The notes beneath the pieces were generated by a model. That model was not told the DNA's origin. It saw only the letters and a program-made list of their open reading frames with translations, and made no database searches. A stretch of DNA of 64,000 nucleotides from Felis catus (Eukaryota), in assembly GCF_018350175.1 (NCBI RefSeq), contig NC_058368.1:99388001-99452000 (forward strand). The letters run 5' to 3'. Positions 1,333 to 55,674 of the stretch are shown in pieces. Positions within the stretch are counted from its first letter, which is position 1; each line of letters begins with the position of its first letter. A program made the translations under genes and the position numbers.

Positions 1333-1419
1333 AATATGTCTTCCCTACATGGTTAAAAAAACCCTGTGAAAGAGTCCTCAGTGGGGATGACCCTGGCTGT
1401 GATAAACTACTCTTTAATG
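1333..1419 (+). pseudogene. Candidate exon of unidentified multi-exon gene relic (87 nt, phase 1-1)
   Basis: Acceptor tttttattcatactcttatag, donor atg|gtaaat; stop-free: YVFPTWLKKPCERVLSGDDPGCDKLLFN. Confidence 0.5.
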
Positions 1420-1834
1420 GTAAATTGCTTTTACACATAATAAGAATTAACAGCTTTAATGATTTAGTGATTTGCTGTTTCCACTAGTCCAAATGTTTCC
1501 AGCAGAGAGTTAAATGTATTGAATTCTCTAAATGTATATTTCTCAAGGGGATCAGCAGGGCATCAAGAAATAGTAATAATAATTAATAGTATAACTATAA
1601 CAACCTGACATTTTATAGGGATAGAGTGTACAGTTCAGTGACTGACACTGTAATTCTTAATATATTTGTAATGGAAGATAAGTTGAAAGTTTTTTAGAGC
1701 TGGTATTTTCCTAGTTCTAGAAAGAAAGAACATGGTTTGTGAAATCAAGAAAGAAATTGCCTTGCCTGGAAAAATGTCGAGAGCATACCACATATAATTG
1801 AATTTACGCTTATTAATGCATCAAGATATATTCT

Positions 1835-2026
1835 GGGGGCACCTGGGTGGCTCAGTCAGTTAGGCATCTGCTCTTGATTTTGACTCAGGTCATGATCTCA
1901 CAGTTTGTGAGATCAAGCCCCGTGTCAGGCTCTGGGCTGGCAGTGTGGAGCCTGCTTGGAATTCTCTCTCTCCTCCCTCTGCCTTTCTCCCACTCGCATG
2001 CTCTCATTCTCTCAAAATAAATAAAC
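1835..2026 (+). mobile_element. CAN-SINE (older SINEC)
   Basis: ggggcacctgggtggctcagtcagtt head ... ctctcaaaataaataaa. Confidence 0.93.
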
Positions 2027-2042
2027 TTTCGAAACCTAAATA

Positions 2043-2276
2043 TAGTAAAACCTTGGATTTCAAGTAACTTGTTCTATGAGTGTTCCACAAGACGAGTAAA
2101 CATTTCTAATCAATTGTAACTTGATAAACGAGCAATGCCTTACAATACGAGTAGTACATGATGTTGAACATCACATCACAACTTAGTGGTTCTTGAAGTT
2201 CACTTTGATATACAAGTGCTTTGGACTACAAGCATGTTTGCAGAATGAATTATGTTCACAAACCAAGGTTTTACTG
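2043..2276. mobile_element. Tigger-type (TcMar) non-autonomous DNA transposon, short internally deleted copy
   Basis: TIRs (t/c)agtaaaaccttgg ... ccaaggttttactg; both ends match the ends of the longer copy at 53790-54581 in opposite orientation. Confidence 0.85.
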
Positions 2277-2469
2277 TCTTCTAAAGACACTGTTGTGGGG
2301 ATATAATTATCAGGAATGAATAAAACTTGTCTCCTTATAGTTGACAATCTAAAATAGAGATTAAAAAAATGCGGCATAATTAAGACATAGTTAGATTGAA
2401 TATCTGATCACCTAATGAGCGAATATAAGTAATTTTTGAATTTCTGATTATTTTGTGATAAAACCAAGT

Positions 2470-2830
2470 TCAGATAAGCTGATGACAGAAACAGCACACA
2501 TTTATTTGGCTTTGGGACCTTATAGGAGATATCTACCACATTTGACTGGCTATTCTGATGTAGCTTCTTGGATAACTGAAAGGCTAACAGCTCTGGAATG
2601 AAGGAAGAGTAGCAAAGTCTCTGTGGTTGGTGCATACTGTGGTGAAAGGAATTCTCCCACTTGGCCCCTGTGACCCACCCATACTGTTTATTCACCTTGC
2701 ATATGTTGATGGCAGATTGAGCCCATGTCTACTTCCTCAGGAGCCCTGCCTGAACTGCAGTGGAATGGTTTGGAGTTTGTTTACAAAGCATACCAGCTTG
2801 GCCAAGGAAGGCAGAGGTAGCTGTCACTAG
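2470..2830 (+). mobile_element. Ancient ERVL-like (class III) pol fragment
   Basis: Translates across frameshifts to GPYRRYLPHL ... LVHTVVKGILPLGPCDP ... MVWSLF, resembling ERVL pol as I recall it (GFWRQHIPHL ... ALPLGPYDP ... AVWSLW). Confidence 0.6.
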
Positions 2831-2925
2831 GGATGTAGCTTTGCAAAATAATAAAGGCCAATTATAGGACAGTGGTTTGTTAGGATAACCAAATAAGAAC
2901 AGGAAAATAAAGAAGCTGTATTTTT

Positions 2926-3092
2926 GGAGCAACTGGGGGGCTCAGTCAGTTGAGGGTCCAACTTTGGCTCAGGTCATGATCTCACCACTGGTGGGTTTGA
3001 GCCCCGCATTGGGCTCTGGGCTGACAGCTCAGAGCCTGGAGCCTGCTTCAGATTCTGTATCTCCCTCTCTCTCTGCTCCTCCCCCGCTCTCA

Positions 3093-3147
<55 letters not shown>

Positions 3148-3900: not shown

Positions 3901-4368
3901 TACATGTGTTCATTTAGAATCATATTTGATATTGACACTGGCACTACTTTTTAAAATTAATATGACATAATAAGCCTAATTTAGACTCAATAATAGTAGG
4001 GTTGAGGTATATACCAGTCTTTGCATCTTCTTCGTACTTCCTGTTTTAGATAGATAGCCTGTATAGATGTAAAAAGCATATATATATATTTCATTTAACC
4101 TTTAAAAGTAGAAGAAAAATCGTCAGTTCATACTTAAAGCACATTGACACATACTACTGTATCAGCCAGATATGTACTTGATCATATATCTGACAGATGT
4201 TTATATTCTACGTAAGTACATACAATAAGGTCGAGAAGTATAAAAACCTGATAATAGAGCTGAGCCTTGATAGGGACTTAAAGGATTCATAGAGTTTAAG
4301 CAATTCTTTGGTATCATTTCCATTTTTCGAAGTTTTTCAATTCAGTGTATTACTTGTATATTTTAAAG

Positions 4369-10859: not shown

Positions 10860-12123
10860 CAGTTTTCTGAAAGTTCTTGGTGTCTGGTAGTTGCAGATGA
10901 TGATGAAGAGGTGTCAGTTCAGTGAAACCCTCTTCAGCATTTCCAGTGTGAGTTACTCACTTCTTCCTCAGAGCGAATCTGGCAGAGAGTCCTCTGTCCT
11001 CCCACTGCCTCAACACCTCGACGCTACTCTGTGTAAGATTTTCAAAAACCTGATCAGATCCCAGTTTCTCAAGGAACTCTTTGCTGCCAAATTATCCTAA
11101 ATATATTTCTGTGTTTATTATGTCTCAACTCAAAACTCATATATCTAAGGTAACTTCCACTTGTTTTGTTACGTGTATGTTTCTCCTAATACAACCCATA
11201 CATTCTACAGAAAGTAGTTTTGTAATTTGACTCATTTAAGTTGCATATACTTATTCTATAAAATCATTCAGCATTTATTCAGTGCCTGGAAAAAGTCTTG
11301 CAGCTAACATTAAATAAGTACGTCGTCATTTTATTTATGCCATAAATAAATAAAGATTTGGCAAGGAGTGATACAAAGGAATAATTGAAACTTTCCTCAA
11401 TAATTCAAGGGAACAGGTAAACAGTTTTCTTAGAAAGAAACTGGAAATACCTTTTAAACCATCTGTGTAAATAATATGCCAGTTGACGTAAGTTTTTAGC
11501 TTTCAAAGATGAAAGAATTAGTTTTTTTCCCCCTAAATTAATAAAATAGAGTGGAAACATCATCTGTCTGTCCTACAAAAGTAAACTATACTCCAAGGGC
11601 ATAAATAATAAAAGTCTGCTCAAGCAAATGCAGTCTTTGTTTTTAAAGTGTTCACTAAAATGTGGCTTTGGAACAAGCAAAAAATAAATCCAATGTCAGA
11701 CTTTTCTAGTATTGTTTCCAAACATTTGTTTGTCCTCCAGTAGTGTATTCAAAATAAAATCACTGTACATTCCCAAGTGCAATCTTTTCTCGTATGAAAT
11801 AGCAATTTTGATAGAGGCTGGATTAGTGAGGTAAGATTCTCAGCAATTTGGAATATATTTTTAAATAAATATTGGTGAAAGTATTTAGACAATAGAAAGG
11901 GAGGGAGAAAAAAGGTGAGGGTGTCAAATATTTTATTAAGTGGGATAAACAAGGGATAGGAAATGCTCCTTGTCTCAGAAGCACTCTATGAAAGTGATCG
12001 ATATGGATGGTTTATGCAACTTTTACAATGATTTTCTAAGCAATTAGGTCATCCTAAGCTTTGATTTTTCAGCAAAGCATTCTCTCCAACAGTAGGTTTA
12101 AGTCTTACCATTTGTTTCTACAG

Positions 12124-12428: not shown

Positions 12429-12643
12429 TGATCTATCCATCCCAAGGAGCCGTATAACACATGTCGTATGTTTGATGTGAACTACTTGTAAAAAAAGTGA
12501 CGTATTATCAACGCTTTCCCTGTAACAATAACCAGGGAAACAGTTGTGTTTGAAACTAACAGATATTCTGTATTAAAAACATAATCATTGGCGTCCTACA
12601 AACAGGAGACAGATCACCTTACTCTTAGCAAGAGCAAGTTCAG
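12429..12643 (+). pseudogene. Candidate exon (215 nt), degraded
   Basis: Acceptor ttttattctaaatcttctag, perfect donor cag|gtaagt; stops in all frames. Confidence 0.5.
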
Positions 12644-17809: not shown

Positions 17810-18001
17810 GTATGTAGAACATTTACATACTTTGGTTACATTTGAGCATAAAAAGTGTGGGGATGTAACTCTTGGGGACAGATGAAAAACATGGTTATTG
17901 AGTAGTAAAAATAGCAGGTCTACCTCTTTCTGTATTTATCCACACTCTGTAGTAGACTCTAGGTCCTAAGACTCTAATTCTTATTAATATAATTGCCAAG
18001 A

Positions 18002-18216
18002 GGGGCGTCTGGGTGGCACAGTCGGTTAAGCGTCCGACTTCAGCCAGGTCACAATCTCGCAGTCTGTGAGTTCGAGCCCCGCGTCAGGCTCTGGGCTGAT
18101 GGCTCAGAGCCTGGAGCCTGTTTCCGATTCTGTGTCTCCCTCTCTCTCTGCCCCTCCCCCGTTCATGTTCTGTCTCTCTCTGTCCCAAAAATAAATAAAA
18201 AACGTTGAAAAAAAAA
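18002..18216 (+). mobile_element. Young felid SINE (SINEC_Fc-type)
   Basis: cagccaggtcac...ctgatggctcagagcc...gtcccaaaaataaataaa; TSD aatata(a/t)ttgccaaga. Confidence 0.96.
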
Positions 18217-19138
18217 TATATTTGCCAAGAGGCACTGGTTATCAATGGCCTATTGTGGCTCTAGAATGCTCTAGAATAGAAGCTGATGGAACTATATTGG
18301 TTATTCTTATGTAAAATAATATCTAAATGCACACACAAATACACAGTTCCCTTCTCTGTTTCTTATCTTCCTCTAACGCTATTGAATTTTAACTTACGCT
18401 CTTTTTAAAAGTCCTATGATCTTGCTATTGGAGGTGATTATTTGTCTGACATAGTTGCATTTTTCTGAGTTGAATTTCATTTTCTTCTGTTTATTACTAT
18501 ATTCATAGTCTGTGTGGTTCGATTTATTTCTCTGTTTATTCTCCTCTTTAGTACACCTGCCAGTTTATTATCGTTCACACCTCCCACAAATGTGCAGTTT
18601 GCTTCCCTTTTTACCTCATTAATTTAATACTAAAGAACATTACAACTTAAGCCAGCCCTTCTAGACATTCTCTCGACACTCACCACATCCCAATTCAATG
18701 ACAGGTGTGATTACCCTCTCTTTATAAATTTAGAGCCCTTTGTCAGTCTACATAATTGTTCTTCTCCAAACCCATTCAAGCTAATTTTGCAAATATTATT
18801 TTAAGACGTGATGTCAAATAATTCATAAACAGATAGGATTTTACAGGATAATACACACAATACCTGGTATATGTCATTCATTTTCTCAGGAGATAATCTA
18901 CAAATCTGTATTTTTAAGTTGCTGACCATTACAGCAATTTTGAAACCTCAAATAGGGATATAATTGGTTCCTTATAAATTCAGTCAGTGTTATCATATCA
19001 ATTTATATTTATCTGTCCATCCATCTATCAATGCATGTATCTCCATAAGCAAATAGAGACACATACTCATATACACACATACTTACTTTAAGTTCTTTAA
19101 TTTCTCACTTGAAATGTAGTATTAAACATAATTAGTCT

Positions 19139-19320
19139 GGGGGCTCCTGGGTGACTCGGTTAAGTGTGGGACTCTTGATGTTGGCTCAGATCAGGATCTC
19201 ATGGTTAGTGAGTTCAAGTTCTGCATCAGGCACCATGCTGACAGCGTGGAACCTTCTTAGGATTCTCTTTCTCCTTCTCTCTCTGCCCCCCCCCCAAAAT
19301 AAATAAATAGACATTAAAAA
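19139..19320 (+). mobile_element. CAN-SINE (older)
   Basis: ggggctcctgggtgactcggttaag head; TSD about ataattagt. Confidence 0.9.
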
Positions 19321-19401
19321 TAATTAGTTAGATTCCCTTTGCCGCCCCAAAGTTCTCCTCAGTCAGAAAGAATACAGTTGAGTCCATTCTTGGTTTTTCA
19401 G

Positions 19402-19635
19402 ATTGTAGTTGTGGCCAGTATACATTTGCCAGTTCCTTTTGGTTCACTTATATTCTGTAAAGCACCCTTCATAATGATTTCTTAATAGCTTCTACCATAA
19501 ATACTGTATCTCCACAAAACGTGTGGTTAGCATAGTAACTGTTAGCGCTCGTTTTGGTAAATAAACCAAGTCTGTGTATTAGCACAAGTGTGAACAAGTT
19601 AGGTTGGTGAATAATCTCAACCTTTTATCCATTTG
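19402..19635 (+). pseudogene. Candidate exon (234 nt), degraded
   Basis: Acceptor ccattcttggtttttcag, donor ttg|gtatgt; starts CSCGQYTFASSFWFTYIL in phase 1; stops and possible internal frameshift. Confidence 0.45.
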
Positions 19636-19886
19636 GTATGTATTTTATTTAGCACCAATTACTTTTTCATGCAGTCTTGTGGACTCTGAGATATCATAGA
19701 AAACATCATTTTAAAAAACAAAATTTTAAGGATATGATAGTCTGCCTGAAAAATATTTCTGGGCACTCAGGATGAGAGCAAATGGGAACCACATAAATGT
19801 ACATTGTAACTTCGTTATGCTAGTTTTGTTTTCATAGAACACTTCAGTCATTTTTCTGACATTCAATTAGGGTAGGTCATATTTAA

Positions 19887-19946
19887 ATATATATATATAT
19901 ACATACATATATATATATACATACATATATATATATATATATATAT
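19887..19946. repeat. (TA)n/(TACA) microsatellite
   Basis: Directly visible, flanked both sides by atatttaaatat. Confidence 0.9.
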
Positions 19947-20125
19947 TTAAATATTGTAATTAGCAAAACTGTGAGAAATCATATGGGTATTTTCATTGCC
20001 TGGAAATAATTCTATATTATCACTTTAGTCTTCATTTTATTTATCTTTTAATTCATTTTCTGAAGCCATATATTGTTTGGTATTTTTAAATTTATGACTT
20101 AAGCCATATATTTTTTCCCTAACAG

Positions 20126-20172
20126 TGAGAATTTGCCTCTATCTGCCTTTTTCTATTCAATTCTTACTAAAG
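20126..20172 (+). pseudogene. Candidate exon (47 nt)
   Basis: Acceptor attttttccctaacag, donor aag|gtagaa; open ENLPLSAFFYSILTK (phase 2-1). Confidence 0.4.
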
Positions 20173-20237
20173 GTAGAATCTTCCTAGTCTATATAAAATC
20201 CTTCTCCACTGGAATATAAAATCTATATTTTTTTTAG

Positions 20238-20292
20238 GAAATCACAAGATTTCTCATTTTCCATTGGCCAACCACAGCAAATTTTTTTTGAG
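20238..20292 (+). pseudogene. Candidate exon (55 nt)
   Basis: Acceptor tatattttttttag, donor gag|gtaact; open NHKISHFPLANHSKFFL (phase 1-2); upstream intron only 65 nt. Confidence 0.4.
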
Positions 20293-20608
20293 GTAACTCC
20301 TGAGATTATTTATTATTAGAAATTCAGATATTTCCCTGATGACTCTTTAAATCCGTAGCAATTTCTGGTTTTCTATGTCACACTTATGCTTCCAGTTTTC
20401 TTTTTTTTCTCCTGCCCTCATATGTCATACAGGAAATAAGTGGATTTCAATTCACTCCATTTTACCACTTCTTATTACTTCTAGGGAGGGAGGTACTTTG
20501 AAGACAGATATTTTTGTTAAAATCAAATTTTGGTATAACTTCTAAGTAGCCTCCAGTTTCAATTTTTTTTTCTATTAAAATAGAAATTATTTCAAAGAAA
20601 AAGTTTTT

Positions 20609-20824
20609 GGGGGCAACTGGGTGGCTCAGTCGGTTGAGCTTCTGACTTCGGCTCAGGTCATGATCTCAGGGTTTGTGAGTTCAGGCCCCGCGTGGGGCTC
20701 TGTGCTGACAGCTCAGAGCCTGGAGCCTGCTTCGGATTCTGTGTCTCCCTCTCTCTCCTCCCCTGCTCGTGCTTTGTCTCTCTCTCTCTCTCTCGAAAAT
20801 AAACATTAAAAATTAGAAAAAAAA
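20609..20824 (+). mobile_element. CAN-SINE (host of nested young SINE)
   Basis: ggggcaactgggtggctcagtcgg head. Confidence 0.95.
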
Positions 20825-21046
20825 GGGGCGCCTGGGTGGCGCAGTCGGTTAAGCGTCCGACTTCAGCCAGGTCACAATCTCGCGGTCCGGGAGTTCGAGC
20901 CCCGCGTCGGGCTCTGGGCTGATGGCTCAGAGCCTGGAGCCTGTTTCCGATTCTGTGTCTCCCTCTCTCTCTGCCCCCCCCCCCCCGTTCATGCTCTGTC
21001 TCTCTCTGTCCCAAAAATAAATAAACGTTGAAAAAAAATAAATAAA
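20825..21046 (+). mobile_element. Young SINEC_Fc-type SINE inserted in the A tail of the previous SINE
   Basis: CpG-intact body; TSD taaaaattagaaaaaaaa on both sides. Confidence 0.96.
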
Positions 21047-21109
21047 TAAAAATTAGAAAAAAAAAAAAAGCTTTTCCTATTGAACTGGGGGCCAACTTTT
21101 CCTTTAACT

Positions 21110-21352
21110 ACAGTGCTGGGGAGCTCATTACTTTTAGGGACCCACAAAAATGCTTTGACTTAGTTTAAAATCACAAGAAAAGAATGAGCTCTTAGGTCAA
21201 ATAATACATATTGAATATAATATTAATATATTCATGTTTATATTCATGTACTTACAAAACAGAACTTTGAATATTTTTGTGTGTGTTTTCATGCAGAAGG
21301 GGCAAAGGAAGGCAAAATTGCCTATGACCCACAGAAGTCATAATACAATCCT
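21110..21352 (-). mobile_element. Old hAT-like MER DNA transposon fragment
   Basis: gaaggcaaaattgcctatgacccacagaagtcataat end resembles a hAT-MITE terminus; family not certain. Confidence 0.45.
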
Positions 21353-21556
21353 AATTGATCCTGTTTCTCTTTATTGAAACATGGGAAGCTGTGGAATTAT
21401 TGATAAATCTAATCAATGAATATATGTGGAAGATTCTGCTACGTACATGCATCCATGCATGCTATTATGTGTATAGTTAATGAGTAAAAGCCATTTACAA
21501 GAATTTTGTATACTCTTCTAATTCTCACTAGTTCCTTACATTAAAGAATTAATTGT

Positions 21557-21773
21557 GGGGGTGCCTGGGTGGCTCAGTCGGTTGAGCGTCCACCTTCGGC
21601 TCAGGTCATGATCTCACAGTCTGTGAGTTCGAGCCCCGCATTGGGCTCTGTGCTGATGGCTCAGAGCCTGGAGCCTGCTTCTGATTCTGTGTCTCCCTCT
21701 CTCTCTGCCCCTTCCCTGCTCATGCTCTGTTTCTCTCTGTCTCAAAAATAAATAAATAAACGTTAAAAAAAAA
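21557..21773 (+). mobile_element. CAN-SINE
   Basis: Full-length SINE body and A tail. Confidence 0.95.
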
Positions 21774-21948
21774 TGCAGTTGAAGGGGCAAGTTGATTTTG
21801 TGTAGAGAACTCCAAGTGAACCCTAAAGCATGCAACTTTAGTATTAAAATTAACCAAATATATAGATTAATTTCATAATAAATATTCTCTCTGGTAGTGG
21901 GAGTCTCACATTTTTATAAAGTCTTGCTCTGAATTGTCTTCTTTGTAG

Positions 21949-22000
21949 TTTGGAGATAATTAAGTACAGAGGTCTTTCAAAACTAACTCAGAAATCACTA
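21949..22000 (+). pseudogene. Candidate exon (52 nt, phase 2-0)
   Basis: Acceptor ttgtcttctttgtag, donor cta|gtaagt; open LEIIKYRGLSKLTQKSL. Confidence 0.5.
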
Positions 22001-22065
22001 GTAAGTGCCCTGATTGGTCTTTAAAGTTAAAAAAGAAAAAAAAAATAGGAAGAAAATTGCTTCTA

Positions 22066-23278
22066 ATTGTTTTGTTTTGTTTTGTTTTGTTTTTTTGGTG
22101 GAATACTTAGGGTTTTCTATGTATAGTATCTTGTCTGCAAATAGTGACAGTTTAATTTCTTCTTTACCAGTATTTAGATGCCTTTTATTTATTTTTCTTG
22201 TCTGATTGCTCTGGCTAGGACTTCCAGGACCATGTTGAATAAGAGTAGCAAGAGTGGACATCCTTGTCTTGTTCCTAATCTTAGAGGGAAATCTCTGTTT
22301 TTCACCATTCAGTATGATGTTAGCTGTGGGGCTTTCTCTCATATGTGGCCTTTATTTTGTTGAGGTATGCTCCCTCTAAATCCACTTTGCTGAGACTTTT
22401 TATCATAAACAGATTTTTTGATCAAATGCATACTTTGCATTTATTGACATGGTCCTATGATTTTTATCTTTAGATGTGTTGATATGGTATGTCACATTGA
22501 TTTGCGAATAGTGAGCCATGGTTGCATTCATGGAATAAATCCCATTTGATTGTGGTGAATGATCCTTTTTAATTTATATTGAATGCAGTTTTCTAATAAT
22601 TTTTGAGAATTTTTCTTCAGGGATATTGACCTATAGTTTTCTTTTTTTGTGATGTCTTTGTCTTAGTTTAATATCAGGATGATGCTGGACTCTAATGATG
22701 TATTTACATTCCATACTAAAAGAATAATAATAATAATCTGATTAAAAATGATTATGGGACCTGAATAGATTTTTTTCCCACGGAAGACCTACAGCTGGCC
22801 AATAGATACATGAAAAGATCCTCAATATCACTCATTATCAGAGAAATGGAAATCAAAACCACAGTGAGATATCACCTTAAACCTGTCAGACTAGCCAAAA
22901 TCTAAAATATAAGAAATAACAAGTGTTGGCGAAGAAGCGGAGAAAAAGGAACCTTTGTCCACTGTTTGTAGGAGTGGAAATTGTGGAAAACAGTATTAAG
23001 GTTCCTCAACATATTAAAAAGAGAAACACAGTATGATCCAGTGTTCCATTATTGAGTATTAAAAAAAAATTAAATAATGTCATTACTCTGATCAAACTCT
23101 CCAAAGGCACTCCAACTCCTTTATGACAAAATCTTTGTGACAAAATCTTTTTAAAGAAAAACAAAAATGCTAATTTGAAAAGATAAATGTACCTCTTGGT
23201 TTAATGCAACATTTTTACAGTAGTGAAGATATGGAAGCACCCTAAGTGACCATTGACAGGCAAATAGATAAAGAAGAT

Positions 23279-23323
<45 letters not shown>

Positions 23324-23826
23324 TAGAATATTCCTCAGCCATAAGAACAGATGCGCTCATGCCATTCATAACAACATGGGAAGACCTAGAGGTTATTATG
23401 CTAAGTAAATGAGTCAGGCTGAAAGACAAATACTATATGACTTCACTTACATATGGAATCTAAGAAACAAATAAAGGAAAAAGCAGAGTCAGACCTATAA
23501 ATACAGAGAACGAGTTGATGGTTGTCAAACGGATGGGCTTGTGGGGAGGAGCCAAAGGGTGCAGGGAAGTGGTACAGGCTTCCAGGTAAAAAGTGAACAA
23601 ATCAGGGAAATTCGCCTTTTAGGTATAAGCGATATAGTCCGCGTTATTAATAGCACTGTTAATACATTGTTACCAATAGCAGCCTAGAGTCGCAGATGGC
23701 ACCTACACTTGAAGTGAGTATAACAATATTTAAAGAAGTTGAATCACTATGTTGTATACCTGAAACTAATGTAACATTGCATGACAGTTATACTCAATAA
23801 ATAAATAAATTAATTAATAAATAAAT
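22066..23826. mobile_element. 5'-inverted L1 insertion (antisense RT segment about 22066-22700, sense ORF2 C-terminus/3' UTR about 22715-23826)
   Basis: ORF-track 21998-22342 contains L1 RT text ([31 protein letters not shown]); sense part ends in (aata)n; shared flank aaaattgct at 22053 and 23827. Confidence 0.8.
23281..23322. repeat. (TG)21 microsatellite
   Basis: Directly visible. Confidence 0.95.
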
Positions 23827-24132
23827 AAAATTGCTAATTACTTTATATAATAATCCAAAGATCACTGTTCTGTAATTTATATCACTGTCTCATTGTTTGT
23901 ATTGTTGTTTATGTGTGACCATAATTATTAAAATATCTTCATTAATTAATAATGTGGCCTCCTGTTCTTATTCTTAATTCAGTTATTAATCTTTCCTTCA
24001 GATTTAGTTTTAAGAATACTGATATGCAAAATATAATTAAACTGTCTAATTGAAATGCATACAGTTTAATCTCACTGAAGATGATGTGGAAGCATTCATA
24101 CACATGTTGCTTTTGTAATTTTCTGAATCTAG

Positions 24133-24164
24133 GAAGCAAAAATATATCAGAAATTGAATTTTAG
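24133..24164 (+). pseudogene. Candidate exon (32 nt, phase 0-2)
   Basis: Acceptor ttttgtaattttctgaatctag, weak donor tag|gtttta; open EAKIYQKLNF; phases link exons 21949 and 26811. Confidence 0.35.
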
Positions 24165-24251
24165 GTTTTAACGTTTGTATATTTCTCTACTATCAAAAAA
24201 ATGTATAATTGTCTTGTTATGTGGTATTAATTTACTTAAACTGTGATTTTT

Positions 24252-24463
24252 GGGGGCGCCTGGGTAGCTCAGTCGGTTAAGTGTCCGACTTCAGCTCAGG
24301 TCATGATCTCGTGGTTTGGGAGTTGAAGCCCCACATTGGGCTCTGTGCTGACAGCTCAGAGCCTGGAGCCTGCTTCAGATCCTGTGTCTGCTTCTCTCCC
24401 TTCCCTCCTCTGTTTTCTCTCTATCTCACTCTCTCAAAAATAAATAAACATAAGAAAAAAAAA
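24252..24463 (+). mobile_element. CAN-SINE
   Basis: TSD ttaaactgtgatttt. Confidence 0.95.
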
Positions 24464-24662
24464 TTAAACTGTGATTTTCGGGTGGGGGACATTCTAGGCA
24501 AGATTAAAATTCATTAGGATGATCACATTAACTTTTATTAAAAATATTTCAAAGATGTTCACTACTAAAATAATACCATGGAAAATAAATGATATTATTT
24601 AATGATCTGGTTAATTTCATCATTTCGGGCAATCAACATGTGTTATTTTTTTAAATTAGTTT

Positions 24663-24884
24663 CTTTTTTTAATTTTTTTTTAACGTTTATTTATTTTTGA
24701 GACAGAGAGAGACAGAGCATGAACGGGGGAGGAGCAGAGAGAGAGGGAGACACAGAATCGGAAACAGGCTCCAGGCTCTGAGCCATCAGCCCAGAGCCCC
24801 ATGCGGGGCTCCAACTCACGGACCACGACATCGTGACCTGAGCTGAAGTCGGATGCTTAACCGACTGAGCCACGCAGGCACCCC
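24663..24884 (-). mobile_element. CAN-SINE (felid)
   Basis: TSD taaattagtttcttt. Confidence 0.95.
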
Positions 24885-25079
24885 TAAATTAGTTTCTTTA
24901 GATGATATACAATGTCACATTAATTTCAGATGTACAACATAGTGATTCAACATGTTTATACATTATGTTATACTCACCATAGATTATTTGCTCCCTACCT
25001 TGTACCACAGAAAGAAGACACTGGGACTGAGGTATATATAAAGTAATTTTCCCCAATACATTTGTCCTGTATTTGTTTG

Positions 25080-25420
25080 CCAAGCTGCCCGGACTCGGTT
25101 TTGCCCAGTAAATCTTTTGTCAGATCTGTCACAAGGTTTCTGGGAAAATGTTTCTTCCTGAATAAAAAGAGTATGTCTAAAGAGGGGCACTCTTTCAGCT
25201 ATATTCCTTTGATTGTCTTTTTTCCCTATGGTGGATGTAATCTTTAGGGCATTGGCATATATAGGACATATGTAGGACAACATTTAAGAATAAAACGCAT
25301 GTATATTGCAAATAGTAGAGCAGAAAGGCAGAGTGCTGGATCCTTGATCTTTTTGATGAGCTGTACCAAACCCAAAAAAAACCTACTTCTACATCAAAGT
25401 GTTGTCTTATAAACCACTCT
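25080..25420 (+). mobile_element. Old MaLR (MLT1-like) LTR fragment
   Basis: ttctgggaaaatgtttcttcctgaataaaaag...gcagaaagg...tggatccttgat...gagctg pattern. Confidence 0.5.
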
Positions 25421-25422
25421 TT

Positions 25423-25446
25423 TCTTTTTTAAGTGTATTTATTTAT

Positions 25447-25485
<39 letters not shown>

Positions 25486-25659
25486 TAGTACATGCATGTG
25501 CGCATGGTGTGGGAGAGGAGCAGAGAGCAAGGGGCAGACAGAGAATTCCAAGTAGGCTCTGCGCTGTCAGCATGGAGTCCAACCTGATGCCAGGAAATCA
25601 TGACCTGAGCCGAAATCAAGAGTCGGACACCTAACTGACAGAGACACCTAGGCATCCCC
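25423..25659 (-). mobile_element. CAN-SINE with (GA)n
   Basis: atgacctgagccgaaatcaagagtcggac...ctaggcatccc. Confidence 0.92.
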
Positions 25660-26214
25660 TTATAAACAGTTCTTATTTGTGCCTCCATTTTATCACAGCC
25701 TAAGGAATAAAATAATTTCTGTTAAACTCATTCTATAACTTCTTATTTATATTCCTTTCTTGGAGTACCTTTGGAAGCAATCTTCCACTTACTTGATTGG
25801 CATATTTAGCTACTATGAAAATAATTAAGAATTTTGTTGTTGCACAGGTATGCTCGGACTTGGATTTATGTAAGTTTTCATAGTTTTGATATTGTTACAT
25901 TTATTTATTCATGCCAAACTAATCGTGATGAGAGGTTTAATTTGCAGTTCCCTGATTACCAGCGTGATGAAACTTCCTTTCATATGTGCGTTGGCCTATT
26001 GTGTTTCTTTTCCAGTGAATTGCCCTTCATATTCTTTGCTCATTTTTTATTTACTTGTTATTTTGTTCTCACAGACTTCTTTGTATTCTTTACAGTTTAT
26101 AAATACATACATCAAACTTGTTAATATTTTACTCTTAAAATGCCCTTGCTTTTTGGTGCCTCATCAATAAAAATCTTTCTTCATTAACGTGATTAAAATA
26201 TTTTCTTCTTTTGG

Positions 26215-26730
26215 GAAAACATGGATGGAACTTGAAGGCATTGTGTTATGAAATAAGTCAGACAAGAAAGACAAATACTGTATGATCTTAAAACACACAC
26301 ACACAGCCAAGCTCATAGAAACAGAGAGTTTCTAGGGTTGGGGGGGGTGGTGAGTGGGGTAGAGGTATGAGATGGGTAGAGGCAGAGAGAGAAGGAGACA
26401 GAGACTCTGAAGCAGGCTCCTCACTGTCAGAGCAAATCTTGAAGTGGGGCTTAAACACGAACTGTGAGATCATGACCTGAGCTAAAGTCAGATGCTCAAC
26501 TGACTGAGCCACCCAGGTGACCTGACAATATTATATTTTATACTTGACAAAAGAGTAGATCTTGAATGTTCTCACCTCACCAAAACATTTTTTCGTGGCA
26601 GGTGATGGATGTGCTAACTAAGTTTTTGAGATAATCATTTTGCAATGTGTGTGTATATCAAATCATCCTATTGTATATCTTAAAGTTACACAGTGTTATA
26701 TGTCCGTTATATGTCACCAAAGCTGGAAAA
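26215..26730 (+). mobile_element. L1MA-type 3' UTR with antisense CAN-SINE at about 26340-26523
   Basis: acatggatggaacttgaaggcatt...aaataagtcagac; agagtagatcttgaatgttctcac...ataatcattttgcaatgt. Confidence 0.85.
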
Positions 26731-26810
26731 GATGAAGATCATATGGTCTCTATTGGATCCTCTTTCCTTCATGTTGAACTTATTTGGTACAACTAAATGT
26801 CATATTGCAG

Positions 26811-26894
26811 AGACATAATGAATAGTTTGGGTGATGATGGAAATAAGACACAAATATGGCAGAATGAATTTATCCCACGTGGGAAAAGATTCAG
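26811..26894 (+). pseudogene. Candidate exon (84 nt, phase 2-2)
   Basis: Acceptor catattgcag (weak tract), donor cag|gtaata; open DIMNSLGDDGNKTQIWQNEFIPRGKRF. Confidence 0.45.
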
Positions 26895-27472
26895 GTAATA
26901 TATTACAGATTGAAAACTTAAATCCATGCCATTGTTAAAAGTAAACTGGAGGAATAATGGAAGTAGAAAATTTTTCACAAGAAAGACTAATTACTATTGC
27001 TTGCTTGATTGATTTGGAAAAATGTTATTTTGTCTCATCAAATATTAGCAAGCAGGTCATTTGACTATACTTTAACGAGATGTTCTTTATACATTTGGAC
27101 ATATGATATTTCTCTTTGGGACTTTGACATTGCCAATAGCTCTTGCTTACACAGGGTTCTTTTATCATCTCTCTCGTTCTCGGGTTTCAGTATGAGACAC
27201 TGTGCAATGGTTTCGCCATGTGGCTGATCATGTCGCATACCAATTCACAGCTTTTTAAAGGCAGACAAACTTACTTCAACAATGATTACTAGTTTATTTC
27301 ATTGCTCGGATTACTTGAAAGATCTGGTTTGTTGTCCTTTTACAGATCAAATATTCTGTCTAAATCCCAATCGCATTAATGACTTATTTTCTAAATGTTA
27401 CATACTGTGTTGTGTATAAATACAACTTCACTTCAAAAGCCATTAACCTGAATTTTGAAATTCCTACTGTAG

Positions 27473-27514
27473 GACCGGAATAAAGCACCAGTATAAAGTA
27501 GAATGTGTTTTCAG
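27473..27514 (+). pseudogene. Candidate exon (42 nt, phase 2-2)
   Basis: Acceptor aattcctactgtag, donor cag|gtagct; open TGIKHQYKVECVF. Confidence 0.35.
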
Positions 27515-28884: not shown

Positions 28885-29566
28885 AAGAGTTCATATTTTT
28901 AATAAGCTTTCATTTGCAAACACCACTTTAGATTCCTTCTTTATCTCTCTCTAATACAAAAGTCTAAAGTGAGCTTTCAGAAAGCATTAAATTACAGCCA
29001 TTTGATATGGAGGCAGAACACAGGAGTGACTCTTTCTGATGAAGGCTGTCATTTATTTTTTCCTTCAGAGAGAAGCTTTATACACTGAGTTTTTGGACAT
29101 GTATTCATTGCAGCTTTGTAGTAAAGTAACAAAAAGGATGAAAAATCACCCTTTGATCAGGAATGTAATAAGAGTTGATAACAGCAGTCTGTTGCCTAAG
29201 TTATAAATGAATATCACTGTACCCATTATAGAAAATAGATATTACGTGATAATTATCTTCTAGTTCCCACTCTACCCCTGAATTCAGAAACGTTTGGCTA
29301 GCTTGGTAATGATAGTATAAGATAATAAAAAAGAACTGAACTCAAATAATTATATAATAATAATAAGATTAATGATATTAACTAATAATAATAGTTATTA
29401 CTCTTATGGTACAGTTGATGCTAGTTTGTCCTAAGAATTGACAGCATGGATAAGAATGAGGTGTTTTGTTGATTACATACTGGTATGTGATATTTAAACA
29501 TGAAAGATGGAGGGACTGCTGTAAATGCCAAAATGTAATACTATTTATTATGTGTTGTTTTCTCAG

Positions 29567-29698
29567 TGATAGAATATATATCCATCAGAAATAGAATCAT
29601 TGGACCTAACACATGCTTGCTTCTTCTGAAAGATCTTTTGAGAAACATGCATTCTGAGAAACATTTTTTAGAGAAATATATTCCAACAGTTCCCACAG
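29567..29698 (+). pseudogene. Candidate exon (132 nt, phase 1-1), fully open
   Basis: Acceptor tgtgttgttttctcag, donor cag|gtaaag; 43 stop-free codons IEYISIRNRIIGPNTCLLLLKDLLRNMHSEKHFLEKYIPTVPT. Confidence 0.6.
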
Positions 29699-29790
29699 GT
29701 AAAGTTGGCCTCAAGTTTTAAGGTATCAAGGAAATTAACAGATCTGTAGTATAAAAGTCTTCAGTATACATATTTTTTTCATGAGAGTTG

Positions 29791-29831
29791 ACCACACTCT
29801 GAGTTCATAGTTCATGAACTCAGAGTGTGGT
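29791..29831. repeat. Perfect 18-bp inverted repeat with 5-nt loop
   Basis: accacactctgagttcat-agttc-atgaactcagagtgtggt. Confidence 0.95.
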
Positions 29832-30539
29832 TTCATGTTAAGTGTCAGTCAAGGTTAAAATAAATGGCAAATTTGAGGCTAAGATACTATCTAGTTTTTG
29901 TGTTATTATTTGAGATTTTTATTAAGATATTTCCAAGTAAATAGAGTTAAAGAATCCCAATAACTATCTCAGTAAATATAGTTAAAGTTAAAGAATCCAA
30001 GGAAGATCTACAATATGTAAAGTGTTTGTAGCGGTAAATGTTTACTGACCTTCTAAGGTAAAAGCAGCTCTGATCTGTAGCATCTGCCAATTTGAGTGGT
30101 GTAAATACACTAACAGTGGCTGATGTCAACTTACTAGTTTTATGCCGCTGAACCTCAGGTTGGGAAGGGATACAGGATTAGCTCCACAACAGGTATCTTC
30201 CCAACTTCAGGAGTGGTGGGTATTACGGTGTTCCTTCTTGCATCTATCTCTTGGTGATGGAATGGAGATGGTAGTAGTAAGAAGCAGATGTCCGCTCCTC
30301 TTGCTTGACTGACTGTACCAAATTTGCTGAGCTCTTTCAGTTTGTTGTCATTTCTTCCCCATTTAGTGTTAACTAGAAGGTGGTTTCTTGTGGCAGCAGT
30401 CACTGAAGTGTTGATTCTTTTGAGATTATTTGTTTGTTCTTCTGGAACCTTCCTTGTTGCCAGAGATCTGTCTAACCTTTCTTCAAAGCTCTTCAAGTCA
30501 CCTTACTACCTCTGTCCTTTGCTACTGGTGATCCTTTGC

Positions 30540-30860
30540 ATAAGCTGACTTTTGCTCTATAACAAACCACTCTAAAAGTTAGTGACCTTATTGTTGTTTA
30601 TAGTTATTGTTATGTGGTTCTTCTCTATGAACAAATTTATCTAATCTCTGCTTGGCTAACTCTTGTATCTGTAGTCACCTGGCCAATGAGATAATCTGAA
30701 ACAACATTGCTCATGAGTTTTGAGGTTGATTAGTGAAGAACCAGAGATCTTATCCATGTGTTGTTGTTATTGTTTCATTTTCCAGAAAGTTAGATCAGGC
30801 TTGTTCACATGATCATTTAAATTTTTCAAGAACTGTGTGTACAAGAACTTTCCAGACTAA
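30540..30860 (-). mobile_element. Old MLT1-like LTR fragment
   Basis: ttttgctctataacaaaccactctaaaagttagtgacc...caggcttgttcacatg. Confidence 0.6.
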
Positions 30861-31056
30861 TGCTTCTTTAGGAAGATGCTACTTAGATATCTCATGCTTC
30901 TTTCCATATAAGTAAGCTCAAGAGAGGCATTTTTAGCAATGCAAAGGAACAGATAATGTTCTAGTTCTTACAATTTGGTAGTTTCTTCTGTGTTCACTCT
31001 TCCTCTTTAAATCCCTTAAATTTGTTGTATAATTTGTTGTATATGTGTTATTTTGT

Positions 31057-39838: not shown

Positions 39839-39900
39839 ATGAACCACGTACGGAAATGGTGCAGAAAAGGGTACTTGTGCTATTGTGTGAACCCAACTTG
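39839..39900 (+). pseudogene. Candidate exon (62 nt, phase 1-0)
   Basis: Acceptor ttgttctacatgttttgttag, donor ttg|gtaaat; open EPRTEMVQKRVLVLLCEPNL; phase matches exons 29567 and 40489. Confidence 0.5.
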
Positions 39901-40488: not shown

Positions 40489-40720
40489 CAATTTGTCAGC
40501 CTATGTGCTTGGCATGGTTATGAAATATTTGTCCATAATGTTTATAAGAACGAGACATTCTGCTTCAGCTCTCACAACTGTGGAGGCAAGATAATTGTCT
40601 CCATAATTGATAGCAGTTTTGTCTGACTAATCATCAAACTTTGTAGACTGTGCAGAAGCAACCCTTGCTGCTTTGGATAATTACATCTTGATATTCATCA
40701 GTGTCTTCATAGGGCATCAA
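40489..40720 (+). pseudogene. Candidate exon (232 nt, phase 0-1), two stops
   Basis: Acceptor ctttctatttgcctctataaag, donor caa|gtgagt; QFVSLCAWHGYEIFVHNVYKNETFCFSSHNCGGKIIVSIIDSSFV*LIIKLCRLCRSNPCCFG*LHLDIHQCLHRAS. Confidence 0.5.
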
Positions 40721-44570: not shown

Positions 44571-45058
44571 TGTGTTATTTTTCCATTTCTACATAATAGA
44601 CCATCCCTGAGTAGAGTAGTATCTTCAAATAATAATCATTTGTTTGTTCTCGATTGAATGGATCAGCAGTTTGGCCTGTATTTACTCATGAAGATGCAGT
44701 CATCTGGCCTCTCAGATGTGTCTGTATTTTGCAAAGTGGCCCCAGTGCCTGCTCTGTTTGTCAGCCTGGCTTTTCTTTCCATGTGGTCCTTTAACATATG
44801 GGCTTTCTTATAGAGAAGCAAAAGGGTAGGCTTTCTCACCTCCTGAGAGGGTGGAAGGTGCAAGGCCTATTAAAAGCTAGGCTGGAAAGTCACAAAACTT
44901 CATTTTTGTTGAGTACTATAGGTCATAGTATGTCACAAAGCCAACCCAGATTTAAGGATGTAAAAACAGACTCTGTACTTCATAGGAGGAGATGAAAAGG
45001 ATTATGATACAGGTATGAGAGGGATTATTGTGGCCATATTTGCAAATAATCTACCACC
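44571..45058 (-). mobile_element. MLT1-type LTR
   Basis: gtcacaaagccaacccagatttaagg...gtggccatatttgcaaataatctaccac. Confidence 0.75.
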
Positions 45059-52129: not shown

Positions 52130-52850
52130 ACCACTTTTAATTCCATATGTATGTTAGAAGCAACTTGTTAGTTACTTCAAAATGCCTCCTGTATTTCTTA
52201 CATGAATTCCGTTGAAGCCAAAGGTTGGATGTCATTGTTGTGAGTGTTTCTACCCATGAACAATGCATCTCTGATTTCATTTAGGTCTTATTTCATTTAT
52301 CTTAGAAATGTTTTAGAATTTCAGTGGTAAGAGCTCTTATATGGGTTTTGCTCAATTTATTCTGAAGCATGTTGTATGTATGATGCTATTGTAAATTACG
52401 CTTTTTGAAAAAGTTTGATTTTCTAATTGCTTATGGTTTGTATACAGAAATAAGATTAATTTTTTTTTTAAAAAACTGGTGTTCTTAAACTTCCAACCCA
52501 GGTAAATTCACTTTTTAGTCCTAGTAGATTGTTTCCCTTTTAAACCCAGGAGATTTTTATAGAGTCAAGAATTTTCTATATAAATCATGTCATCTGAGAA
52601 AAAAAAAATATTTCCTTCCTTCTACTTTTTATCCATTTCTTTTTCCTCTTTATACTAGCGAAAGTTTCCATTGAAATGCTAGATAAAAATTATGAGAACA
52701 ATTGTACTTGCCCTCTTGATTTTATGAGAAAAATACTTAACCTTTCCATATTATGTATATTATATTATTTTGTAGATTTTATTGTAAGACTCAGGTGATT
52801 TCCTTCTATTCCTGCTTTACTGTGAATACTTACCATGAATGGCTTTTTCA
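52130..52850 (-). mobile_element. Old L1 ORF2 fragment, antisense
   Basis: tacccatgaacaatgcatctct...ttttctatataaatcatgtcatctg. Confidence 0.7.
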
Positions 52851-53517
52851 TATACTAAAGACAATTTTTCATGATTTAAAAAATTTATCTATATAAGTTT
52901 TAATGACTGCATATGCTCTATTGTATGTATGTACCTAACTTTCAGCAAAACCCCAGTTATTTGGAGTTAGAATTCTTATGCTCTTTTGTATACATTGCAT
53001 TAAATAATTCATAGGAGAGATTTGCTAGACAAAATGGTGTGCATTGTTTAGAATTTTGATATATTTGGCATGAGGTTAGTTTTGACTAAAAGTAAAAACC
53101 CTGAAACTTGGAAAGCTTACCAAAAATAGGGAATAAAATAAAATCTTTTGAAAATGAGAATATCTAAAAAGTTTTTCCTGCACTTTACTAAATAAGATGA
53201 AACATAATGTATGAGAGAGAAAAATACAGTTTTTCATTATTTACACAGACATCTGCACCTTAAAAATCACTTTTCTGTGAAATGTGTCCTCAAGTGTCAG
53301 CTATATTTTGGCCCAATATATAAAAACCTTTATGTAGTTATGCACACCTGTTCATATTTTTTTTCATTTTTAATAAGATATAATCTGATTTTGAACATGA
53401 AACTGAATAGTCTGAAATTCAGTTGTTTTTATATAATGAAATTAATGTACATTAGTTGTTAATCAAATTACCTTTACTTTTTTTGAATTTAAAAAATGTG
53501 TGCTAAACTCAAATATA

Positions 53518-53740
53518 GGGGTGCATGGGTAGCTCACTTGCTTAGGCACCCAAGTCTTGGTTTCAGCTCTGGTCATGATCTCACGGTTTTGTGAGTTCAA
53601 GCTGCTCATCGGGCTCTCTACTGGCAATGTGGAGTCTGCTCGGAATTCTCTCTCTCTCCCTCTTTCTCTGCCTCCATCCTCCACTTGCACTATTTCTGTC
53701 TGTCTCAAAATAAATAAGTCACCTTTGGAATAAATAAACA
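53518..53740 (+). mobile_element. CAN-SINE
   Basis: TSD aaactcaaatata. Confidence 0.9.
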
Positions 53741-53789
53741 AACTCAAATATATATATTGTAATTGGTAGATTTAACAATTTAGCAAGTA

Positions 53790-54581
53790 CAGTGAAACCT
53801 TGGTTTGTGAGCATACTTGTTCTGAAAACATGCTTGTCATCTAAAGCACTTATATATCAAAGCGAATTTCCCCTAAGAAGTAATGGAAACTCAGAAGATA
53901 CGTTCCACAACCCAAAAATATTCACATTAAAATTATTACAATACTGTAATATAATATAAAACAATATAGACAATACAAAATATAAAGAAAAATAATCATA
54001 TTAACCTGCACTTACCTTTGAAAACCTTAGAGGCTGGGGTGAGGGAGACAAGAAAGTAGAGGGTTATTGTGGAGGACAACTTTCGCTGTCGCTAACCCAT
54101 GTTGACTATAGTACAGTTTTGATGAACTCTGATCATCTCGTGCATTGAATGTAACTGGCAATAAGGCAGCAGAGGAAAGGGTCTCTATCTGCAGGCGGCC
54201 TGACCTGGAATGAAACAAAGCATTTCTAAGCTTACTTACCATGGAAAAGCAAAAGACTGTCCATAGTGCTTTGAGGTGACAAAAAAAATACTTTCGTGCC
54301 AGTCGTGGGTACTTTCCAACGTTCTGAAAAATCACTGATTTCTGCCAAACACTGTGGCCTGAGACCAAGCATATGAGCATGGGAGACAGTCACTCACAAC
54401 CCCACAGAGAGAGAGAGAGAGAGAAGAAACAGTGGCTCAGTTGTGATCATGTGACCTTTGGCATCAGGTAGTACTCGCATTGCAAGATATTGCTCACTTA
54501 TCAATTTAAAATTTATTAGCAATGTTTGCTGATCTTGGGGAACATTCGCAGAACAAGTTGCTCGCAATCCAAGATTCCGTG
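53790..54581. mobile_element. Tigger-type non-autonomous DNA transposon (about 790 bp)
   Basis: TA flanks (53788-89, 54582-83); TIRs cagtgaaaccttggtttgtgagca ... tgctcgcaatccaagattccgtg. Confidence 0.88.
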
Positions 54582-55173
54582 TATCTCCCTAGGATTTTTT
54601 CTTTTTCAAAAAACTAATTAGATACAGCCTGTAAACTAAAAAGTAGAAAGCTAAGCATTAATTGGATTCTTTTTTGGTAATTAAAAAATATTCCTTAATG
54701 TGGTATTTTTATTACTATTGGTATGTCTTAACCTTGTATAAAGTCTAATATACTAAGAGCCACTGTAGCATTTCTATCAATAAATTAAGTCCCCTTTCTA
54801 GGCCTTCTAAAATGGTATTCACATTTTTTCTTTTGCTACTGGAGTGTAACTTATGTGAAGAATAGAACTGTTCCTTTGGTTGAATGATGCTTCTCACTCA
54901 GGTATTCTGGAACATAGTAGGTGCCCAATATGTGTTTCTTAACAAAATAAATAATATGTGCACATTTTAATTGAAATATCCATTGCAGAAATGTCACATC
55001 TTAAATACCAGCTTAATGATATAAGAAAATGGAGGCTTAAGAAATTCAAGTTACCTTCTATGTGTATACTTTTAATATGGTATTTCAATTACAATGTTGA
55101 TTTCCATTAAGAAATTTAAGACAGTCCACCAACAGTGCACTTCTCACTTTTCAACTTTATTTTTCTCTTCTAG

Positions 55174-55269
55174 TAAACATATTTGGTTGGGTCAGAAAGG
55201 TCATGTCATATCTCAGAAAGGAAAATCATGAGAAGAGATAAGTTTTAATTTCAGGTCTCAGAAATTCTG
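55174..55269 (+). pseudogene. Candidate exon (96 nt, phase 1-1), one stop
   Basis: Acceptor caactttatttttctcttctag, donor ctg|gtatga; NIFGWVRKVMSYLRKENHEKR*VLISGLRNS. Confidence 0.4.
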
Positions 55270-55589
55270 GTATGAAATCAACTCCTCCCTTCCCCAGTAA
55301 GGGAGATGGCTTATTTTAATAGTATTTTGTGAACAATGTTAGGTGGGAAACTGGTATTTGTTACATGGTTAATAATTGCCAGTTGGTTCAAAAATTGTAG
55401 GTTGAGCTTAAGAAATTAATTATCTGAAACATTCACACAAATTGGATTTCTGAAAAGAGTATCCCAGAGGAATGAACGAATAGCTAAATTTTTCTCAAAC
55501 CAGAGTACTTTTAATTTAGACAACTTGATTTTTAGTATATAAAAAGTGATGTATTAAGAGTACTCTAATACATTTTAATATTTCCAAAG

Positions 55590-55674
55590 GCACACAGTGT
55601 CAGCCTTTTGAAATGTTTGGATACTTCTGAGGTTCTTAGACATGCTTTATGACAAGATGAAATGTATTCCACAG
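55590..55674 (+). pseudogene. Candidate exon (85 nt), one stop
   Basis: Acceptor attttaatatttccaaag, donor cag|gtataa; AHSVSLLKCLDTSEVLRHAL*QDEMYST. Confidence 0.35.

Follow-up and report, generated by a model that had tools for sequence, protein, structure and literature searches.

Pseudo-exons, or decoy exons, are more numerous than real exons (PMC2685110). The exon-like segments described here resemble them as characterized in that text: they are exon-sized, have good 3' and 5' splice signals, and occur as often on the minus strand and in flanking DNA. Unlike those pseudo-exons, they are intergenic and have AG-free zones longer than those of matched decoys.

The PhyloCSF unitary pseudogenes in the sections of Mudge 2019 covered here (PMC6886504) would be alike in being multi-exon relics where nothing is annotated, interrupted by stops and a break in phase and lacking a second genomic copy. 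Each of them, however, names an intact orthologue or a representative coding model, and none was found for this locus. There is also a likeness to coding-derived lncRNAs (searched supplements of Hezroni 2017, PMC5577775, and Wen 2023, PMC10195156), in that the splice sites would have outlived the coding sequence, which was the second option of an earlier note on this DNA. Unlike those lncRNAs, the locus has candidate segments only, with no entry at its estimated position in the searched files of Hezroni 2017.

The window, a 64,000-nt stretch of Felis catus DNA, is flanked by PRR16 on one side and by LOX, SNCAIP and SNX2 on the other. PRR16, FTMT and SRFBP1 were the only genes given for this desert in the relevant part of a human copy-number table (PMC9777446). 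No gene was described at this place in the literature covered, a scope that ended before the later half of Mudge Data S6 (PMC6886504) and the supplements of other gene-loss catalogues.

The earlier note had inferred here a decayed multi-exon gene on the + strand, with about 20 segments bounded by AG and GT. Coordinates accompanied ten starts and two ends, and the claim held for these (AG before 10/10 starts, GT after 2/2 ends). The segments considered, with boundaries as assigned in this analysis, were as follows.

1333..1419, + strand: exon-like segment, 87 nt, single open frame, GC 41% against 30% in the flanks
4050..4211, + strand: exon-like segment added in this analysis, 162 nt, no frame free of stops, gave rise to the RGS guess
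20126..20172, + strand: chain 1 segment 1, 47 nt, with a candidate 65-nt intron after it (20173-20237)
20238..20292, + strand: chain 1 segment 2, 55 nt, open in two frames
21949..22000, + strand: chain 1 segment 3, 52 nt, donor GTAAGT
24133..24164, + strand: chain 1 segment 4, 32 nt, phase bridge, donor GTTTTA off consensus (-2.2 bits)
26811..26894, + strand: chain 1 segment 5, 84 nt, AG-free zone of 71 nt upstream
27473..27514, + strand: chain 1 segment 6, 42 nt, phase clash with 29567
29567..29698, + strand: chain 2 segment 1, 132 nt, best exon candidate, single-copy, no homologue found
39839..39900, + strand: chain 2 segment 2, 62 nt, GC 45%, acceptor weak at 0.8 bits, 61-nt AG-free zone
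40489..40720, + strand: chain 2 segment 3, 232 nt, donor GTGAGT, single-copy
55590..55674, + strand: segment at the last coordinate of the earlier note, stops in every frame

The acceptor of the last segment was uncertain, with AG preceding 55561, 55590, 55598 and 55604. The best candidate, 29567..29698, had splice scores of 7.9 and 8.5 bits and one open frame of 43 aa.

The six segments of chain 1 joined, as had been claimed, into 312 nt without a stop, giving a 103-residue peptide. The phases fit because the 32-nt piece 24133..24164, with its weak donor, bridges them. Chain 2 was likewise stop-free for the 109 residues reported, and then met a stop at 40624-40626, 94 nt short of the donor; the three frames of 40489..40720 contained 2, 3 and 8 stops. 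Together the chains comprised 212 stop-free codons in nine ordered segments on one strand. The join from 27514 to 29567, already flagged as problematic, was out of phase, and direct joining produced stops in all three frames. Further weak points, missing from the earlier note, were the GTTTTA donor after 24164, the 0.8-bit acceptor at 39839 and the 65-nt intron. Stops and a phase break were present among the segments, but would count as disabling changes only relative to an ancestral coding sequence.

Frame-blind draws of the same lengths were stop-free in 240/60,000 cases for chain 1 and 218/60,000 for chain 2, approximately 0.4% each. This rarity is to be set against the picking of the segments by frame in the earlier note. 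The caveat that small exons often have two open frames was borne out: short pieces were usually stop-free, often in two frames.

It appeared quite unlikely that the PRR16-LOX desert holds a coding gene of unusually small exons, largely in frame in cats and unannotated in the proteomes searched. Such a fast-evolving gene would be partly intact or recently dead in the cat lineage, with unannotated orthologues and, most plausibly, testis restriction; the phase would be mended by one more exon, now missing, in the gap from 27514 to 29567. The 212 codons in order on the same strand and the rarity of such chains in blind draws argue for it. So does the single-copy state of every segment tested: searches of the cat genome returned, at a significant level, only the self match in 5/5 segments, and hence no parent or duplicate. 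On the other hand, the non-consensus donor, the 65-nt intron, the phase break and the stops within 40489-40720 argue against it.

In simulated neutral decay at 0.05 substitutions per site, 0.5% of runs left both chains open with their splice dinucleotides kept; at 0.10 the share was about 0.002%. Only decay of no more than about 0.05 substitutions per site thus leaves the chains intact, a point in favor of a coding gene that is alive or only recently dead. Decay that spares such chains must be recent, and orthologues should therefore be easily found, as they were for the RGSL1 control described below. After a recent loss, identity to the coding ancestor should be 90% or more, yet no protein matched in a collection rich in mammalian proteomes. 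A unitary pseudogene presupposes an intact orthologue elsewhere. The fossil-gene reading was thus internally strained, since its intact chains need a recent death and no orthologue was found, and we consider it unsupported.

In the catalogues, Mudge 2019 Data S3 gives 44 human unitary pseudogenes, of which none is this locus, and rows 1 to 2,131 of Data S6 contained no PhyloCSF region on chr5 at 121.1-121.4 Mb; no case listed in these parts of the source sits at the syntenic place (PMC6886504). Both results also count against a coding gene.

Pfam gave no family for 12 segment peptides, and two rows only, both sub-threshold, for 13 readings (most with X at stops). Of the 247 ORFs on the + strand that were repeat-poor and reached 38 aa, none scored above the cut-off, and weak rows (E <= 0.05) in 12 of them were near the chance expectation. 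The best E value in a PDB sequence search with three segments was 0.96; 1333..1419 matched nothing in Pfam, in the PDB or elsewhere in its own genome. Two segments gave nothing usable in the ESM Atlas (best 0.78), and Rfam gave no matches. AlphaFold, run without an alignment on the 60-aa frame over 29567, predicted one long helix (pLDDT 65, pTM 0.32), which was uninformative.

One 43-aa query had no match among 1.84 billion representatives, a library without a positive control. The word-indexed search yielded 0/3 candidates, and 0/145 with six stacked segments, whose profile is a blunt instrument. A control RGSL1 exon recovered 101 orthologues among 124 candidates, at 58-100% identity. A single short exon makes a weak query, and by our estimate orthologues below about 55% identity would escape. 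No intact orthologue emerged from single-segment or stacked-segment queries, including those against a collection rich in mammalian proteomes.

Among metagenome contigs, 0/590 stretches matched. Two matches in 591 were treated as chance, because only a short seed motif was shared, inside longer unrelated ORFs.

Motif likenesses had led us to guess that a third gene of the RGS22/RGSL1 type, carrying multiple RGS boxes, once stood at the locus and left this remnant, which is highly improbable. An alignment of chain 2 with RGSL1 gave p 0.034 by shuffling, as one of 16 pairings, and the aligned RGSL1 intron lay 1 nt off the 39900>40489 joint. On the other hand, PF00615 (RGS domain) had no match in the window, and an RGSL1 profile found nothing in its six frames (best E 0.77). 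Spliced alignment scored 46.8 on the + strand of the window, compared with 46-62 on five control strands, 992 at the RGSL1 locus and 80 at the RGS22 locus. A partial RGS22 (single sequence, 564 residues) scored 64, within the 57-75 of the controls. The hhalign probability was 0.1-0.4%, and the intron phases were unlike (1 vs 0). The likeness to these multi-RGS-box proteins was confined to a few short motifs seen by eye and the one marginal alignment, and the window segments were much smaller than the 14 measured RGS22/RGSL1 exons. With no Pfam RGS, profile or spliced-alignment signal, and no support from 4050..4211, this identity was rejected as unproven. A TBC1D21-like ohnologue was also considered as a candidate, from the gene order at 15q24.

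Background was compared between strands and with flanking DNA. Open AG...GT pairs numbered 140 on the + strand and 144 on the - strand, which by the earlier note's own reasoning speaks against a fossil gene. Of the high-scoring candidates in the window's first half, 16/39 and 15/31 were open on the two strands. The power of such strand tests is low, as RGS22 gave 29 calls on its true strand and 30 on the wrong one. Between 17 and 32 kb, + calls exceeded - calls (11 vs 5; 9 vs 2 at a stricter score), a + density that was matched in a flank bin. Under a crude model, pieces lying between such AG and GT signals numbered about 1-1.5 per kb of unique sequence on either strand, the repeat mask being self-BLAST only, which old repeats escape. 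Splice-consensus matches thus lay at background density on both strands, as expected for pseudo-exons.

Stop-free, phase-matched chains of 4-19 segments could be constructed by dynamic programming in 98/98 test stretches of 12 kb; positions 18001-30000 of the + strand ranked 69th among the 98, in what is a weak test. The eight chain segments tested had a median length of 53.5 nt, compared with 58 nt in 793 score-matched controls and 130 nt in 14 real RGS22/RGSL1 exons. Their donor score was 7.1 bits (6.6 in the controls, 9.2 in the real exons) and their amino-acid score -0.14 (-0.08 and -0.01, respectively). By these measures they resemble the controls rather than the real exons. Codon usage was within the range of stop-free controls, of which 25-57% of 1,500 scored as high. 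The amino-acid and codon scores, from weak models, thus contained no residual coding signature relative to controls, a further point against a coding gene. The splice and codon models were crude and did not separate real genes from wrong strands, and the splice-site matrices and general amino-acid frequencies were approximations.

One feature did favor real exons, namely the long AG-free zones before the acceptors. The median AG-exclusion zone of the earlier note's 10 acceptors was 40.5 nt, against 17 nt in 876 unique controls (p 1e-4) and about 21 nt in controls matched for AT and pyrimidine content (p about 0.002); in real exons it was 38.5 nt. The excess dropped to p 0.07-0.11 only once the controls were required to carry 20 AG-free bases. 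The claim of a decayed gene with kept splice sites was not refuted outright, its acceptor zones being like those of real exons, and leaned toward not supported overall, since no orthologue was found and the minus strand was alike.

These zones suggested another interpretation, which we consider rather unlikely: several segments may be, or may once have been, real exons, either of an unannotated spliced lncRNA or of a very old gene whose loss preceded the placental radiation. Their splice sites would then be genuine, the open chains partly coincidence, and the ancestral protein not preserved; an old loss would account for the missing homologues. The local + strand excess at 17-32 kb is consistent with this, as is the GC content of segments 1333, 12606 and 39839, which exceeded that of their flanks. 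Against it, no promoter or first exon was identified for the segment run, and the window contained no CpG island except one stretch coinciding with SINE copies. Moreover, lncRNAs do not usually contain series of exons as short as 32-55 nt.

Also opposed to it, the parts of the Hezroni 2017 supplements covered (PMC5577775) had no human conserved lncRNA at the estimated position, which was interpolated from approximate coordinates: in file 3 the consecutive rows 6069 and 6070 leave chr5:116.3-121.2 Mb empty, and there was no chr5 row under coordinate prefixes 1203-1208 in file 4. PRR16, SRFBP1, FTMT and RGS were named in no entry of the searched supplements of PMC5577775 and PMC10195156. The 29567 segment was present in 9 sequencing runs from 3 studies; four of these were RNA-labelled, all from one gut study, and would fit a real exon if they carry the segment as spliced RNA, though they may carry it as DNA.

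With no related protein and equally good chains nearby on either strand, we interpreted the segments as most likely look-alike sequence: they are probably for the most part pseudo-exons rather than pieces of a lost gene. On the pseudo-exon reading, the region would be unremarkable single-copy DNA of the PRR16-LOX desert, carrying insertions of SINE, LINE and LTR type, in which pieces of AT-rich intergenic DNA happen to have an acceptor-like AG before them and a donor-like GT behind. Short pieces of this kind were mostly stop-free, often in two frames. Their density and frequent openness would therefore let a reader who chooses pieces and frames freely link five or six in phase, with a weak-site piece as the bridge, as dynamic programming reproduced. 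Nothing would be spliced or translated at the locus, and no gene would have been lost.

Should the quite unlikely coding gene be true, it would represent a new gene family without a Pfam domain, which felids still have or have lost only lately. Mammals would thereby gain a previously unknown gene family in a desert for which the copy-number table, in the part covered, gives only PRR16, FTMT and SRFBP1 (PMC9777446). If the pseudo-exon reading holds, the result is a caution only: phase-matched, stop-free chains of tiny segments can be put together almost anywhere in AT-rich mammalian DNA, and therefore would not be evidence of a gene unless joined by homology, conservation or junction reads.

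According to the earlier note, about 20 exon-like segments on the + strand (1333 to 55674) were the fossil of a multi-exon gene, and coordinates were given for 10 starts and two ends. Direct reading of the sequence found AG before all 10 starts and GT after both ends. The segments of the two proposed chains are as follows.

Segments of the two chains (window positions)
20126-20172, + strand, chain 1
20238-20292, + strand, chain 1
21949-22000, + strand, chain 1
24133-24164, + strand, chain 1
26811-26894, + strand, chain 1
27473-27514, + strand, chain 1
29567-29698, + strand, chain 2
39839-39900, + strand, chain 2
40489 onward, + strand, chain 2

When the segments were joined and translated, chain 1 gave a stop-free peptide of 103 residues and chain 2 one of 109 residues, both as claimed. 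Chain 2 then ran into a stop at 40624, well short of the donor following 40720, and the joint between the chains was out of phase. The donor following 24164 scored poorly (-2.2 bits), as did the acceptor at 39839 (0.8 bits), and a third poor link was the first intron of chain 1, at only 65 nt.

The highest splice scores among the exon-like pieces belonged to 11741-11830 (9.8/10.5 bits) and 12606-12643 (5.4/13.0 bits). Each contained an open frame, and a family search with them gave no match. Pieces with good scores at 30786-30911 and 44716-45012 lay, by eye, inside old LTR elements, presumably of the MLT type. Such pieces would show how decoy splice sites can come from unmasked old repeats.

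Eight chain segments were compared with 14 real exons of RGS22 and RGSL1 and with 793 score-matched controls. Length was 53.5 nt in the chain segments, 58 nt in the controls and 130 nt in the real exons; the corresponding donor strengths were 7.1, 6.6 and 9.2 bits, and the amino-acid scores -0.14, -0.08 and -0.01. In these three features the segments resembled the controls, not the real exons. The codon usage of the chains was inside the range of stop-free controls; the model used distinguishes real coding sequence only weakly.

With approximate splice matrices, 140 open AG...GT pairs were found on the + strand of the window vs 144 on the - strand. As test material, 98 stretches of 12 kb were taken from both strands of the RGS22 and RGSL1 loci and of 234 kb surrounding the window; in every one of them a dynamic programme built stop-free, phase-matched chains of 4-19 segments. 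The stretch with chain 1 ranked 69th of the 98, a weak test that did not place chain-building above chance. Counts of pairs and chains are weak tools, because the RGS22 locus gave 29 calls on its true strand vs 30 on the wrong one. Calls on the + strand exceeded those on the - strand in the 17-32 kb bin (11 vs 5; 9 vs 2), and the call density of this bin was equalled in one flank bin. The stop-free rate was only 0.4% per chain for same-length pieces drawn blind to frame, unlike the frames of the earlier note, which were picked by eye. We interpreted the segments as being, on balance, pseudo-exons (exon-sized pieces between an acceptor-like AG and a donor-like GT that are not parts of a gene), linked by the selection made in choosing them.

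The one feature in which the segments resembled real exons was the AG-free zone. Its median length upstream of the 10 acceptors was 40.5 nt, vs 17 nt in controls (876 unique) and about 21 nt in controls matched for AT and pyrimidine (p ~0.002). Real introns are known to be poor in AG between the branch point and the acceptor (PMC9284458). These long zones argue for genuine exons, belonging to a non-coding or an ancient transcript, which we hold to be possible, if somewhat unlikely. The excess stood at p 0.07-0.11 once controls were required to have 20 AG-free bases already, and by-eye choice of clean pyrimidine tracts might impose just such a requirement. The 29567 segment was contained in nine public sequencing runs from three studies, by run-level match; the four of them that carry an RNA label come from a single study of gut metatranscriptomes.

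Homology was sought with single segments and with a stacked profile. The best query, 43 aa from 29569, had no match in Pfam, the ESM Atlas or PDB, nor among 1.84 billion representatives, a word-indexed collection and metagenome contigs. In the cat genome (2.4 Gb) it matched itself alone, as did four further segments at significance, which leaves no parent copy and no close retrocopy. A profile stacked from six other segments matched none of 145 candidates, and among the 247 ORFs (38 aa or longer) taken from the + strand of the window none reached the Pfam cut-off. As a positive control, an exon of the fast-evolving gene RGSL1, longer than the queries at 65 aa, matched 101 of 124 candidates, spread over the placental mammals, with identities of 58-100%; the searched collection therefore includes mammalian proteomes.

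Neutral decay was simulated with an assumed indel rate of a tenth of the substitution rate. At 0.02 substitutions per site, 12% of runs left both chains open and their splice dinucleotides in place; this share fell to 0.5% at 0.05 and to about 0.002% at 0.10. The 43-aa segment was still 90% identical to its ancestor at 0.05. If the open chains had kept an ancestral frame, the gene would therefore be alive or recently dead, and orthologues would be easy to find wherever annotated, yet none was detected in the searches run. An unannotated coding gene, live or recently lost, is thus unlikely. If the loss was old enough to hide orthologues, the chains should no longer be open. Under this simulation, a gene that decayed long ago and yet chains in phase would fit neither case well.

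A third RGS22/RGSL1-like gene was also considered, on an impression that the peptides resembled RGS boxes. The material consisted of 34 RGSL1 proteins and RGS22 exons taken beside COX6C, RGS22 being partial. An RGSL1 HMM gave no match in the six frames of the window (best E 0.77). With a home-made spliced aligner, RGSL1 scored 46.8 on the + strand of the window vs 46-62 on five control strands, 992 at the RGSL1 locus and 80 at the RGS22 locus; partial RGS22 scored 64 in the window vs 57-75 in controls. One of 16 pairings, chain 2 with RGSL1, reached p 0.034; the RGSL1 intron there differs in phase from the 39900>40489 joint and is one base away from it. This is not evidence for membership, and an RGS22-like relic is very improbable. 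Elsewhere on the contig that holds the window, at C1:82349754-82350104, a full-length RGS domain without introns (75.7 bits) lies in a 366-aa open frame; it may be a retrocopy or a domain encoded by one exon.

The window has a GC content of 35.7%, a repeat share of about 20% (self-BLAST) and no Rfam match. Two SINE copies lie head to tail at 20610-21021 (period 214) and account for the only CpG-rich interval in 234 kb. A stretch of about 150 nt occurs at 61201-61351 and again, 2,035 nt away, at 63237-63386. The two are 87-91% identical, and either the sequence was duplicated locally on a small scale or both are copies of one repeat.

The window spans C1:99,388,001-99,452,000. An exon encoded in another part of the genome is identical to a protein labelled Felis catus, which agrees with the felid assignment. 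In family searches of the genome, a PRR16-type DUF4589 exon fell at C1:98.84 Mb, LOX at C1:100.14 Mb, SNCAIP at C1:100.48 Mb and SNX2-type Vps5 exons at C1:100.82 Mb; the window therefore lies within the PRR16-LOX desert. Its human counterpart is estimated, by interpolation between human coordinates, to be near chr5:121.3 Mb (hg38). The locus is absent from the 44 human unitary pseudogenes in PMC6886504 Data S3, and the first 2,131 rows of Data S6 include no chr5 row at 121.1-121.4 Mb. Among the conserved human lncRNAs tabulated in PMC5577775, none lies between 116.3 and 121.2 Mb on chr5, and the neighbouring gene names are absent from the searched files of PMC5577775 and from one PMC10195156 file.

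Contig C15 (32.05-32.24 Mb and 40.87 Mb) carries a paralogous block in which a gene of the LOX family, a DUF4589 gene and a sorting nexin of the Vps5 type repeat the gene order seen around the window. Genes between the first two members of this block would be natural candidates for an ohnologue lost at the window.
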